Shown here piece after piece: positions 38,415-43,204 of a stretch of DNA of 64,000 nt; the stretch's first letter is position 1; each line of letters begins with the position of its first letter. The notes below the pieces were generated by a model. That model was not told the origin of the DNA. It saw nothing but the letters and a program-made list of their open reading frames with translations, and did not search any database. Location: sequence record PZ386974.1; one strand, given 5' to 3'. A program made the translations under genes and the position numbers. Origin of the DNA: a phage.

Positions 38415-38510
38415 AATATTCTCCCCATGTTTTGATAGGTCTATAGTAACACATCTAGGGAAGAAGTAAACATCTTTATGAAATATTTTTATGCCCTAGA
38501 TACCAAAAAG

Positions 38511-38532
38511 CCCCAACCGTAAGGAAGGGGCA
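38511..38532 (-). terminator. Terminator hairpin GCCCC-uu-CC-UUAC-GG-uu-GGGGC plus U-run, downstream of the IP-like gene
   Basis: Same stem as the 23665 and 39055 hairpins with a different loop. Confidence 0.55.
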
Positions 38533-38537
38533 TTCTA

Positions 38538-39002
38538 TTATTTAATTTGTTTAGCAGACCAGATACGGTCTTTAATAAGTTTTTGGATATCTTCAACATA
38601 CTCAAGGCTATGAGCGTGAGGATTATCTTTGAAGCTATGTGCTCGTGCCAGTTTCTGGCCTTCTGTTTTGATTACTAAAAGCTCTTTAAGAATTGCTTCA
38701 TACTTAGAAATAATTCCTTTGGCGATATTTTTTTCTTGAGCGGCTTTAGGGTCCGCTTTTGGTGCAGGTGCTTTACCTGTAGCTTTCTGGAACAATTCAC
38801 CTGATGCAGCTAGGCTTTTAAAAACTCGGCTAACAGTATTAGCATTAGTAAAACCTTCGGCTTTAAAATCTCTAATAAAACGGAAACGTTCTTCATCAGA
38901 GGCGTCTTTGTAAGAATATTTACCTGCTTGAATTGCTGCAATCGCAGCGGCTTTTACATCTGAACTAGATTGTTCAGTCAAAAATTCAGCGTATGATTTC
39001 AT
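38538..39002 (-). CDS. Internal-protein-like protein with capsid targeting sequence (MKSYAEFLTE)
   Basis: 154 aa, Lys/Ala-rich; N-terminal CTS-like decapeptide. Confidence 0.55.
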   Translation of the reverse strand: MKSYAEFLTEQSSSDVKAAAIAAIQAGKYSYKDASDEERFRFIRDFKAEGFTNANTVSRVFKSLAASGELFQKATGKAPAPKADPKAAQEKNIAKGIISKYEAILKELLVIKTEGQKLARAHSFKDNPHAHSLEYVEDIQKLIKDRIWSAKQIK

Positions 39003-39054
39003 GTTGCTTTTCCTAAGTTAATTAACTTATCTATTTATTATTATGCAAAAAAAA

Positions 39055-39076
39055 GCCCCAACCTTTCGGAAGGGGC
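39055..39076 (-). terminator. Terminator hairpin GCCCC-uu-CC-GAAA-GG-uu-GGGGC followed by a U8 run
   Basis: Closes the tRNA/small-RNA transcription unit on the minus strand. Confidence 0.6.
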
Positions 39077-39388
39077 TATGCCTTGCGGCAACCTTGTCGG
39101 GGTTCCACCTGCTAAGGCAAGTGTTTGTACGAAACGCCGGGATTCGAACCCGGTTATTAAGTAGTTGACGCTACTCAATATTTTTAAAAGGCCATATCTC
39201 GACCATATCCGAACGTTCCGTCAAAAACGCTACTCGGCTTACGGCAAAGATATTTCCTCGAATCGATAATTCGGTGCGCCGTTTCTGCTGTGATGTAAGG
39301 GGATATTAACAAATCGTAAAGATTTATTAAGACCAGTCCTTACTCAGGGAGCATCAGTCCGACGACTTACCGGTAGCGACCCGGCTTC
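39077..39388 (-). ncRNA. Candidate stable small RNA region (T4 rnaC/rnaD-like position), including a tRNA-like T-arm
   Basis: About 310 nt without ORFs between the tRNA-side ORF and the terminator; canonical CCGGG-TTCGAAT-CCCGG T-arm at about 39137-39153 but no full cloverleaf. Confidence 0.3.
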
Positions 39389-39733
39389 TTATTTTGACAT
39401 ATCATCAATTTGCTCTCGACGCCGACGCCATAGATTAATCACTTCATTAACACATTCGGCGTTTGATATATGACGGCAATAATATAATGATTCGCGTTTC
39501 TGGAACCGATGTTGCAATGGGATTTCGTTTAAAAGGTCTTTACGGTCAAAGTATTCAAAACTAGTTAACCCAGAACGGTTTTTAATGAACTTCCAATGAC
39601 CGAATTCATTTTGAACATAGATGTAATCTGCATGTTGGTATAACAAATTAATCAATCGGTCTGAAATAACTGTATCATGTTCGTTAAAATAAAACGTTAA
39701 ATCATGAACTACCAGATAAATATTGCCTTTCAT
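39389..39733 (-). CDS. Hypothetical protein adjacent to the tRNA genes
   Basis: Track ORF 39389..39781 begins at TTG inside tRNA-Arg; ATG at 39733 (MKGNIYLVVHDL...) has an upstream Shine-Dalgarno. Confidence 0.45.
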   Translation of the reverse strand: MKGNIYLVVHDLTFYFNEHDTVISDRLINLLYQHADYIYVQNEFGHWKFIKNRSGLTSFEYFDRKDLLNEIPLQHRFQKRESLYYCRHISNAECVNEVINLWRRRREQIDDMSK

Positions 39734-39751
39734 ATTTTCCTCACTTAAAAT

Positions 39752-39828
39752 TGGTCGAGACAGAAGGATTCTAACCTTCAACCTACGGATTAGAAGTCCG
39801 TTGCTCGATACAATTGAGCTATGCCTCG
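39752..39828 (-). tRNA. tRNA-Arg (anticodon UCU), CCA encoded
   Basis: Hand-folded cloverleaf: acceptor CGAGGCA/TGTCTCG, D-stem GCTC/GAGC, anticodon stem ACGGA/TCCGT with loop CUUCUAA, T-arm GAAGG-TTAGAAT-CCTTC. Confidence 0.75.
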
Positions 39829-39834
39829 AATATA

Positions 39835-39908
39835 TGACCCAGACCAGATTCGAACTGGTAACCTTTCCCTTATGAGGGGACTGCTGCTAACCATTGAGCT
39901 ACAGGGCC
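39835..39908 (-). tRNA. tRNA with CAU anticodon (Ile2-type as in T4, or Met)
   Basis: T-arm ACCAG-TTCGAAT-CTGGT, anticodon loop CUCAUAA, acceptor GGCCCTG/CTGGGTC with one mismatch; D-arm folds imperfectly by hand. Confidence 0.55.
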
Positions 39909-39987
39909 TAAATAACTTTCTATTATGAAAGGCACTTTAGAGTACCTTTGGTAATAGAGGGTATGAATTAATAATAACACATAATTC

Positions 39988-42469: not shown

Positions 42470-43204
42470 TTACCTTAAGATTGTTTCAATTTTAGAATAA
42501 AGCTCTTCTAAAGAGCCGTCGTTTGTAATAACTAAATCGCCTTCTTCAATAGGCAACCCAGCTTCTGTAATATGTTTATCGGTGGATTCCGTACCAGAGC
42601 GAACCACATGAATAACTGTAGCACCCATCGCTCTAGCGGTTTCCATTTCATGGACTTGACGTGTATCGGTTACGACATAGTAATCGAAATCACTTCCAAT
42701 ATAATCCATATAGTTTAATGCAAAAAGCTTAACCCAATACATACGGTCAAATAAATTAACGACAACATCCGTACCGAGGGCTTGCATAAGACGGCGGATT
42801 GACCATGTGTCGTTGATATTATTTATAGCTTCACGCAGGGCTTCATATGGTTTAATATCTAGATACGAATATCCACCTTCTAACGATGATAATACTTTAA
42901 CATTATTAATCGGTAAATATTGACTTTGTAAATAAATTAGCGCTTCTTCCATTAATTCAATAACATCCAACTTATTGATATTTAATGGCGTTTCACGGTC
43001 GTATCCAACACCTTCAAAGTATTCATATTTCAACTCAGTGAATACATCAGGGTTTTCAGCATGTTTACGTTCCCAGGCTATTGCTAGAGCGTCTTTAATC
43101 GGATAGGCCAATTGGTATTTTACGGATTTAAAGTTTGAATTGATGTAATCAGCAGTGGTGTCTTTACCACTACGTTTGATGCCGCTTAAAAAGATTAGCT
43201 CCAT
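42470..43204 (-). CDS. 1: Deoxynucleoside monophosphate kinase gp1
   Basis: 244 aa; MELIFLSGIKRSGKDTTADYI... P-loop kinase matching T4 gp1 as recalled. Confidence 0.9.
   Translation of the reverse strand: MELIFLSGIKRSGKDTTADYINSNFKSVKYQLAYPIKDALAIAWERKHAENPDVFTELKYEYFEGVGYDRETPLNINKLDVIELMEEALIYLQSQYLPINNVKVLSSLEGGYSYLDIKPYEALREAINNINDTWSIRRLMQALGTDVVVNLFDRMYWVKLFALNYMDYIGSDFDYYVVTDTRQVHEMETARAMGATVIHVVRSGTESTDKHITEAGLPIEEGDLVITNDGSLEELYSKIETILR

Follow-up and report, generated by a model that had tools for sequence, protein, structure and literature searches.

Orthologues of the T4 species 2 and species 1 RNAs at the tail of a Mosigvirus-type transfer RNA operon, with a probable tRNA-mimic fold for rnaC

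The DNA analysed here is a window of 64 kb (the whole stretch of phage record PZ386974.1 that was studied, 64,000 nucleotides), in which positions 39077-39388 had been flagged in an earlier note as structured and non-coding, and as a candidate for either small RNAs like T4 species 1 and 2 or a degenerate transfer RNA (tRNA). On the minus strand, 39392..39128 almost certainly encodes orthologues of the T4 genes rnaD (species 2 RNA) and then rnaC (species 1 RNA), as judged by alignment. The explanation that accounts best for the whole, to which we assign a probability of roughly 0.85, is that the two orthologues form the tail of a tRNA operon and that rnaC is a tRNA mimic. The T4 species 1 and 2 RNAs have been known since the 1970s and were among the first RNAs ever sequenced. 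The presence of their orthologues at this place is ordinary, already known, and already annotated in relatives.

The window derives from a T4-like, Mosigvirus-type phage; over 38900-39950 it shares 97% identity with SA79RD, SF and relatives. A sensitive BLAST search with 39060-39400 matched 804 phage records, 680 of them with at least 80% query coverage. The matching DNA of T4 (NC_000866) and RB3 is annotated as rnaC ('species 1 RNA') and rnaD ('species 2 RNA'), and in the record of Mosigvirus ATK47 rnaC is already annotated at the equivalent place. When aligned with the T4 genes, as the earlier note had proposed, both RNAs matched over their full length: rnaD to NC_000866 71053-71171 with 86.8% identity, and rnaC to 70908-71046 with 138 of 139 bases identical (99.3%). 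Order and strand of the two genes are the same in T4 and in the window, and the trailer and terminator that follow them are conserved. The case for species 1/2-like small RNAs is thus stronger than had been suggested, the end-to-end alignment with T4 and RB3 pointing to direct orthologues. The two loci differ in that an open reading frame (ORF) of 114 amino acids (aa) between tRNA-Arg and rnaD is found only in the Mosigvirus-type phage of the window, and in that T4 rnaD encodes an ...ACCA end, whereas the window rnaD ends in CACCG.

Rfam 15 was searched both at the gathering score and at expectation values (E) up to 10, and yielded no family for rnaC or rnaD, only noise (tRNA-Sec with 17 bits, isrK with 16 bits). 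Since neither RNA is represented by a family in Rfam 15, the absence of a covariance-model hit, which had been put forward as a refutation of small RNAs at this place, is not a discriminating test. Covariance models built here for rnaC (R1) and rnaD (R2), on the other hand, gave scores of 110-154 bits. Model R1 scored 152.9 bits on the window copy, nearly the same as on that of T4 (152.8 bits), and found exactly one rnaC copy per locus (127-154 bits); model R2 scored 145.8 bits on the window rnaD. A pattern match for rnaC in an Actinophytocola metagenome-assembled genome, the single match in 185,579 species genomes, was rejected as chance, and model R1 fails there.

The genes in the flagged part of the window all read on the minus strand. 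In transcription order, the locus is laid out as follows (nt, nucleotides):

39835..39908, minus strand: tRNA-Met (CAU), first gene of a short tRNA cluster (ARAGORN; Rfam tRNA model, 54 bits)
39752..39828, minus strand: tRNA-Arg (UCU) (ARAGORN; Rfam, 66.6 bits)
39389..39733, minus strand: inserted ORF of 114 aa, RB69ORF150c-like, PHROG 3355 (a function-unknown family), between tRNA-Arg and rnaD
39273..39392, minus strand: rnaD (species 2 RNA) orthologue, 120 nt, T4 annotation transferred by alignment
39267..39272, minus strand: spacer of 6 nt, GAAUUA, from rnaD to the T4-annotated start of rnaC
39128..39266, minus strand: rnaC (species 1 RNA) orthologue, 139 nt by T4 annotation, placed by alignment; the match of model R1 spans 39125-39265
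39078..39124, minus strand: conserved 3' trailer with the small hairpins CACUUGC-CUUA-GCAGGUG and GCC-GCAA-GGC
39047..39077, minus strand: intrinsic terminator GCCCCUUCC-GAAA-GGUUGGGGC followed by U8 (GCCCC..GGGGC hairpin), read from the sequence

As in T4, rnaC comes last in the tRNA cluster; rnaD precedes it, and the conserved trailer and terminator follow. All the features that the earlier note had read from the letters were borne out. The region is strongly structured, with z = -4.56 for 39128-39266, -3.61 for 39273-39392 and -6.70 for 39040-39400 relative to shuffled sequences, and 39077-39388 is without credible coding potential, being crossed only by short ORFs of 28-45 aa. The terminator placed near 39055 was found as a hairpin plus U-run at 39047-39077 (minus strand), where relatives' records carry a terminator annotation as well; a simple terminator scan missed it because its stem has a U.U mismatch. 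The ORF 39389..39733 (minus strand) is real; its stop codon (39391..39389) and the 5' end of rnaD, as placed from T4, overlap. Neither ARAGORN nor Rfam called a tRNA at 39077-39388, in line with the view that no complete tRNA is present there, and over the 64 kb they found none besides tRNA-Met and tRNA-Arg. The trailer is 88% identical to that of T4 and is retained in Dhakavirus despite the deletion of rnaC there. No T4 late-promoter box (TATAAATA) was found near the locus, the nearest one on the same strand being at 42820, and a sigma-70 promoter scan stayed at chance level.

For rnaC, 22 distinct sequences from at least 10 genera were aligned, and four more were gathered afterwards; together they are drawn from Tequatrovirus, Mosigvirus, Gaprivervirus, Karamvirus, Moonvirus, Kagamiyamavirus, Kanagawavirus, Winklervirus, Gelderlandvirus, Marfavirus and unclassified contigs. 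All collected sequences adopt one four-way junction, composed of the P1 stem, P2, P3 and the P4 T arm, and comparison of the sequences makes it very probable that rnaC is a tRNA mimic with this fold. The elements of the window rnaC are (bp, base pairs):

39259..39265 with 39136..39130, minus strand: P1, 7-position acceptor-like stem, CGAUUCG with CGUUUCG
39189..39258, minus strand: P2, interrupted arm of ~25 bp that replaces a tRNA arm, with a 3-4-nt bulge before the apical stem
39219..39224, minus strand: loop L1, UUGACG, apical loop of P2
39181..39188, minus strand: A-rich single-stranded linker UUAAAAAU, from P2 to P3
39155..39180, minus strand: P3, 10-bp hairpin with compensatory change in 7 of 9 counted pairs
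39165..39170, minus strand: loop L2, CGUCAA, apical loop of P3 and exact complement of L1
39137..39153, minus strand: P4, T arm CCGGG-UUCGAAU-CCCGG (CCGGGTTCGAATCCCGG), zero mismatches
39125..39129, minus strand: 3' tail UACAA after P1, with U at the discriminator position

Across the 22 sequences 98.4% of the cells are paired, and changes on both sides of the helix occur in 25 of 44 pairs; RNAalifold, run independently, counted 24 compensatory pairs out of 39. Not one of 500 shuffles reached the observed values, and when the partners were slid against each other only 35-47% of cells paired. P1 consists of C1-G72, G2-C71, R3-Y70, a conserved tandem U.U, C6-G67 and G7-C66, the pair 3:70 being G-C in 15 sequences and A-U in the other 7. 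The stem meets the T arm in just the way that the acceptor stem of a tRNA does, whereas the places of the D and anticodon arms are taken by P2 and by P3, which ends 1 nt before the T arm. The perfect T-arm hairpin noticed earlier was confirmed on the minus strand (39153..39137); it is the sole match in the 64 kb even with 3 mismatches allowed, where 0.03 would be expected by chance. In the Marfa clade the 3' tail reads UCCAA, that is, with an encoded CCA. The rnaC of Erwinia phage Virsaitis27 has a degenerate T loop (UGCAUC).

P2 is the variable arm of the molecule. Its sequence is swapped wholesale between clades, with pairing and length (70-72 nt) retained, and at least three unrelated versions, found in columns 11-73 of the rnaC alignment, do not track genus boundaries. 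This occurrence of P2 classes across genera indicates, at the level of the alignment, a mosaic exchange of that arm alone. Karamvirus has classes A and B, and Moonvirus A and C.

The apical loops of P2 and P3 behave differently. L1 and L2 are fully complementary in 22/22 aligned sequences, and in 26/26 when four further sequences, from four further genera, were added for the loops (UUGACG/CGUCAA kept). In the Marfa clade the loops are UUGGCG and CGCCAA, a co-change from A-U to G-C. Because the closing pairs of both hairpins vary freely, it is the loops themselves that are under constraint. A 6-bp loop-loop helix in rnaC is, on these comparisons, probably real, and such pairing, whether intra- or intermolecular, would lock the two arms together as a rigid scaffold.

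rnaC behaves as a gain-and-loss cassette inside the tRNA arrays of at least 10 genera. It lies between tRNA genes in EcS1, KM16, Pet-CM3-4, fGh-Ecl04, Virsaitis27, Melville and Ursula, and outside the T4/Mosigvirus/Gaprivervirus group it begins 5-6 nt past the preceding CCA and ends a few nt before the next tRNA. Position -1 is usually U; in the window this is the U at 39266, the residue before the predicted cut by ribonuclease P (RNase P). In many genera rnaC has no rnaD next to it, and either RNA can occur alone. In two Dhakaviruses rnaC is precisely deleted, rnaD and trailer being kept (...GGCGCACCGAA|CACUUGCC...). The T-loop DNA of rnaC (GATTCGAAC, 39141-39149, plus strand) fits RAWTSGAAC, the motif at which the homing endonuclease SegB is reported to cleave T-even tRNA genes (PMC13096335), and this match may offer a route to gain, loss and mosaicism of cassettes at the locus. 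In Virsaitis27 a stretch of ~80 nt between tRNA-Ile and rnaC (L018 1350-1430, plus strand), ending in ...CCCACCA and with a CUGAAGA loop, is without an ARAGORN call; its sequence suggests a degenerate tRNA-Phe-like remnant.

rnaD is a second, independent structured RNA family, in which comparison of the sequences delineates a conserved scaffold and a hypervariable hairpin. Its elements in the window are:

39369..39385, minus strand: 5' hairpin H1, the 7-nt loop GUCGCUA on the stem (G)CCGG/CCGG(U), 5 of 5 pairs compensatory across genera
39291..39346, minus strand: central hairpin, hypervariable
39274..39281, minus strand: 3' strand of the closing stem, CGGCG(C)AC with one bulged C, paired with GUCGUCG at 39366..39360

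The invariant parts are the hairpin CCGG-GUCGCUA-CCGG, AAGUCGUCG with its 3'-terminal partner CGGCG(C)AC, UUCCCUG, and AUCACAGC. On the model-fitted alignment 96.8% of the scaffold cells are paired and 9 of 16 pairs are compensatory. The central hairpin comes in at least three unrelated versions (the T4/window, L009/IME341 and AnYang types) of the same overall fold. Model R2 also finds weaker yet consistent rnaD copies (17.6-31.8 bits) in Moonvirus, Karamvirus and the Marfa clade, far from rnaC. These copies, which each begin 0-11 nt past a tRNA-type CCA, are either without annotation or lie under coding sequences (CDSs) labelled 'hypothetical protein':

L005 2196-2297, L012 791-890 and L006 2214-2313, minus strand: rnaD-like copies
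L037 234-332, L019 890-983 and L020 916-1009, plus strand: rnaD-like copies

A start right after a tRNA CCA is seen for rnaD in T4, RB3, Moonvirus, Karamvirus and the Marfa clade, and is absent in the window. Since such a start is contextual and not defining, the membership of the window copy stands on homology. At 39351 (g on the plus strand; C42 of rnaD) the window has a private U-to-C change, by which a U.G pair of stem S3 becomes C-G; U stands here in all 11 other rnaD sequences of the alignment. An equation of this change with the BW1 adaptive single-nucleotide polymorphism (SNP) was rejected: from the coordinates in PMC12685909, that SNP was computed to fall in the variable hairpin, ~41 nt away from the true 3' end. 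In the Dhakaviruses AnYang and IME341 (L040 ~690-760 and L041 ~685-760, both minus strand) there are ~70 extra nt between the CCA of tRNA-Arg and rnaD, which repeat the rnaD motifs GUCGU, GACUGAU, CAGCA and CGGCGCA in order and may be a truncated tandem rnaD copy. A homing-endonuclease gene adjoins this locus.

The tRNA cluster of the window (39752-39908, minus strand) has 2 tRNAs (Met, Arg), as compared with 8 in T4 and 10 in RB3. Its tRNA-Arg(UCU), 54% identical to the T4 tRNA-Arg, is of another gene lineage than that of T4, yet it neighbours a nearly identical rnaC. Further along, a second terminator at ~38500-38530 (minus strand), after a 154-aa ORF (38538-39002), has a GCCCC...GGGGC hairpin closely like the one that follows rnaC.

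Within the arrays rnaC is placed so that it would be freed by RNase P and 3' trimming. Its 5' end would be cut by RNase P and its 3' end trimmed by exonucleases, as for the neighbouring tRNAs, and the same cuts and stems would define and stabilise rnaD. RNAC has been seen by Northern blot, in T4 as a stable RNA of ~140 nt, and both RNAC and RNAD have been classed as late RNAs in T4-like phages (PMC9697503). Their function was stated to be unknown in 2010 (PMC3014915), in 2022 (PMC9697503) and in 2025 (PMC12685909). We envisage rnaC as a non-decoding tRNA mimic that would present its acceptor/T-arm handle on the rigid two-arm scaffold and engage some tRNA-recognising factor. Our tentative proposal is that rnaC as such a mimic and rnaD, each a scaffold with a swappable arm, may act in the phage-host contest over tRNAs. 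We favour this function because both RNAs reside exclusively in tRNA arrays, the T-even tRNA region acting as an anti-defence locus (PMC13096335); because of their design of invariant scaffold plus swappable arm; because they are dispensable in some lineages; and because an identical single rnaD SNP arose convergently in 3 lines evolved on semi-permissive E. coli (PMC12685909).

A number of observations weigh against this reading of the locus. To our knowledge no partner protein or target of rnaC or rnaD is on record, and T4 mutants that have lost the tRNA region by deletion remain viable on laboratory strains. The Dhakaviruses do without rnaC. A BLAST search of 5,426 E. coli genomes returned no host homologue, and a scan of the 64 kb gave no significant antisense target, the longest complementary words (13 and 12 nt) being within the range of shuffles. 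Aminoacylation is unlikely as a conserved property of rnaC, and charging is unlikely to be its point, because the CCA end is not conserved. In the T4 annotation rnaC begins with U-1, one base ahead of where RNase P is predicted to cut, and its last bases are UA instead of CCA. As the window sequence reads, an ORF and not a tRNA precedes rnaD, whose 5' end here is a putative one. T4 fails to escape Septu despite its rnaC (PMC13096335), so that any role in counter-defence is conditional and unproven. The covariation of L1 and L2 stems from a single evolutionary event, in the Marfa clade, and the scans did not reach deeper divergence: a pattern scan of metagenomes added only 2 Marfa-like rnaC copies, and scans of IMG/VR few new variants. 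Finally, with P2 (~25 bp) much longer than P3 (10 bp), an intramolecular kiss would need a sharp bend at the 3-4-nt bulge of P2, where signatures of a K-turn are lacking. A K-turn was ruled out by the absence of tandem G.A after the bulge.

No such bend would be needed if rnaC self-assembled, with L1 of one molecule paired to L2 of another in a symmetric dimer, a ring or a filament. In the dimer two rods would form, each made of P2, the 6-bp kiss and P3 of the partner. This arrangement is a rival to the intramolecular lock only, and we regard it as possible but rather unlikely. It would agree with the fact that L1 and L2 are exact complements, neither of them palindromic, which co-vary, and with P2 of ~25 bp and P3 of 10 bp in every clade despite the turnover of P2 sequence; an antiparallel dimer fits these lengths unbent. 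There is precedent in that a covarying 'tertiary' kissing loop of ROOL proved to be intermolecular (PMC12286853), and in that RNAs of less than 200 nt can build cages and filaments (bioRxiv 10.64898/2026.07.01.735769). Covariation, however, is blind to whether pairing is intra- or intermolecular, and since P2abc (~20 bp plus loops) is about as long as P2d plus kiss plus P3 (~21-22 bp), a monomer folded back like a paperclip is also geometrically conceivable. By analogy, an rnaC assembly (dimer or larger) that displays several acceptor/T-arm handles might be the active form and sequester or scaffold a tRNA-binding factor of host or phage, though the odds are against it. With similarly low expectation, a self-assembling rnaC could in principle be likened to a miniature relative of the ROOL/GOLLD cages that lie beside phage tRNA arrays.

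Both RNAs sit where tRNA processing would free them anyway, each is dispensable in some lineage, and no target was found in the antisense scan of the 64-kb window or in the BLAST search of E. coli genomes. These facts would also suit an explanation in cis, by which the region holds processing signals, stabilising 3' structures and a terminator, with rnaC and rnaD as stable by-products. We consider this improbable. rnaC is 99.3% identical to that of T4 beside a tRNA-Arg that is 54% identical, and its loops and junction residues are invariant over at least 10 genera and its arms kept by compensatory change, none of which is needed for processing. In other genera rnaC is internal to the arrays, hence not a protector of a 3' end. 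Moreover, discrete rnaC accumulates in T4 (PMC9697503), and selection on a semi-permissive host brought up the rnaD SNP three times (PMC12685909).

A more specific role, with P3 of rnaC as a decoy for nucleases of the PtuAB type (Septu, retron-Eco7), whose cleavage target is the variable arm of tRNA-Tyr, appears very unlikely. P3, which ends 1 nt short of the T arm, does stand where a class II tRNA has its variable arm, and the CGUCA of its loop CGUCAA recurs in E. coli tRNA-Tyr around the reported cut site C48/A49, where the phage tRNA-Tyr has GUCAU. The match is nevertheless a mere 4-5-mer, the Marfa clade has CGCCAA, and T4 carries rnaC yet cannot escape Septu Ec-B88.

The earlier suggestion of a degenerate tRNA held in one respect: an acceptor-like stem and a canonical T arm are kept. 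It failed in the other, as the 99.3% identity to T4 and the compensatory changes do not describe a decaying pseudogene. That rnaC is such a pseudogene, or that its 3' two-thirds are a genuine class II tRNA, is hardly tenable. The T arm is canonical, and so is the 3' acceptor strand; Rfam gave a weak tRNA-Sec match at 39129-39221 (17 bits, E = 2.7, against a gathering score of 47), and an alternative acceptor helix is 85.7% paired across the rnaC family; in two relatives ARAGORN even calls tRNAs of 94-96 nt over the 3' two-thirds of rnaC:

L042 373-466 (G29): false tRNA-Lys(ttt) call on rnaC
L006 1204-1299, minus strand (Pet-CM3-4): false tRNA-Phe(gaa) call on rnaC

On the window rnaC, however, neither ARAGORN nor Rfam makes a tRNA call. 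The supposed anticodon varies among relatives, and its place is the variable linker; compensatory changes are absent from the alternative helix, which scores below all 500 shuffles and has a broken fourth pair in 13 of the 22 sequences; covariation is seen instead in P1 and P2, with which that helix is incompatible; and the extreme conservation of rnaC speaks against decay. The 94-nt tRNA fold and the reading of the linker as 'anticodon-like' CUNNNAA were both rejected, given the missing covariation, the broken pairs and the lack of a flanking stem. A tRNA-Lys call is carried by GenBank MK327940, and a 1-nt change in the A-rich linker suffices to trigger such a call. That the region encodes small proteins, for which ORFs of 42-45 aa at 39184-39312 and 39041-39178 (both minus strand) and 'hypothetical protein' CDSs in relatives could be adduced, can be dismissed, since substitutions come as compensatory stem pairs, P2 and the rnaD hairpin are exchanged for unrelated sequences of like fold, the ORFs straddle the boundaries of RNAs, spacer and terminator, and the curators of T4 and RB3 annotate RNAs here.

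One more T4-like genome with rnaC and rnaD is not news, but the comparative picture reopens a question of function that is 50 years old. The two RNAs emerge as covariation-supported families over many genera of Tevenvirinae and the Marfa clade, and as independent cassettes in tRNA arrays that are now recognised as anti-defence loci, each RNA combining an invariant scaffold with a swappable arm. Experimental handles are at hand in the loop-loop contact of rnaC, which is precise and mutable, and in the Dhakaviruses as natural rnaC knock-outs. The comparison also exposes a recurrent error of annotation, namely false 'tRNA-Lys', 'tRNA-Phe' and 'hypothetical protein' calls over rnaC and rnaD, for which Rfam holds no family.

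Among known RNA systems, tRNA (RF00005), and class II tRNA in particular, shares with rnaC the 7-position stem that joins the ends, the 5-bp T stem with its UUCGAAU loop, a hairpin 1 nt before the T arm, the location in tRNA arrays and the U at -1. In contrast, rnaC has 139 nt as compared with 70-95 and is missed by tRNA finders; it lacks a D arm and a 5-bp anticodon stem with 7-nt loop, having instead arms of ~25 and 10 bp with 6-nt loops; its acceptor stem contains a tandem U.U, and its tail is UACAA, not NCCA. In the tRNA-like domain of transfer-messenger RNA (tmRNA) an acceptor stem and T arm are likewise formed from the two ends of a longer RNA. rnaC differs from it in having A-U or G-C at 3:70 in place of G3.U70, and no tag ORF, pseudoknot ring or ARAGORN tmRNA call. 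ROOL and GOLLD (PMC12286853) are, like rnaC, phage non-coding RNAs beside tRNA islands, and covarying kissing loops hold their higher-order structure together. With 500-800 nt they are far longer than rnaC (139 nt), they are proven multimeric cages, and they are unrelated to it in sequence and fold; Rfam gave no match of rnaC to either. The bacterial Y RNA YrlA (Chen et al. 2014, PMC4201824) is likewise a non-coding tRNA mimic that also occurs in phages, and is a substrate of tRNA enzymes. No Rfam match to YrlA or other Y RNAs was obtained at E up to 10, and no Ro60 gene lies nearby, the neighbouring ORFs being of function-unknown PHROG families. YrlA uses its two ends for the Ro60-binding stem and has the tRNA-like part inside, whereas in rnaC it is the ends themselves that form the acceptor-like stem.

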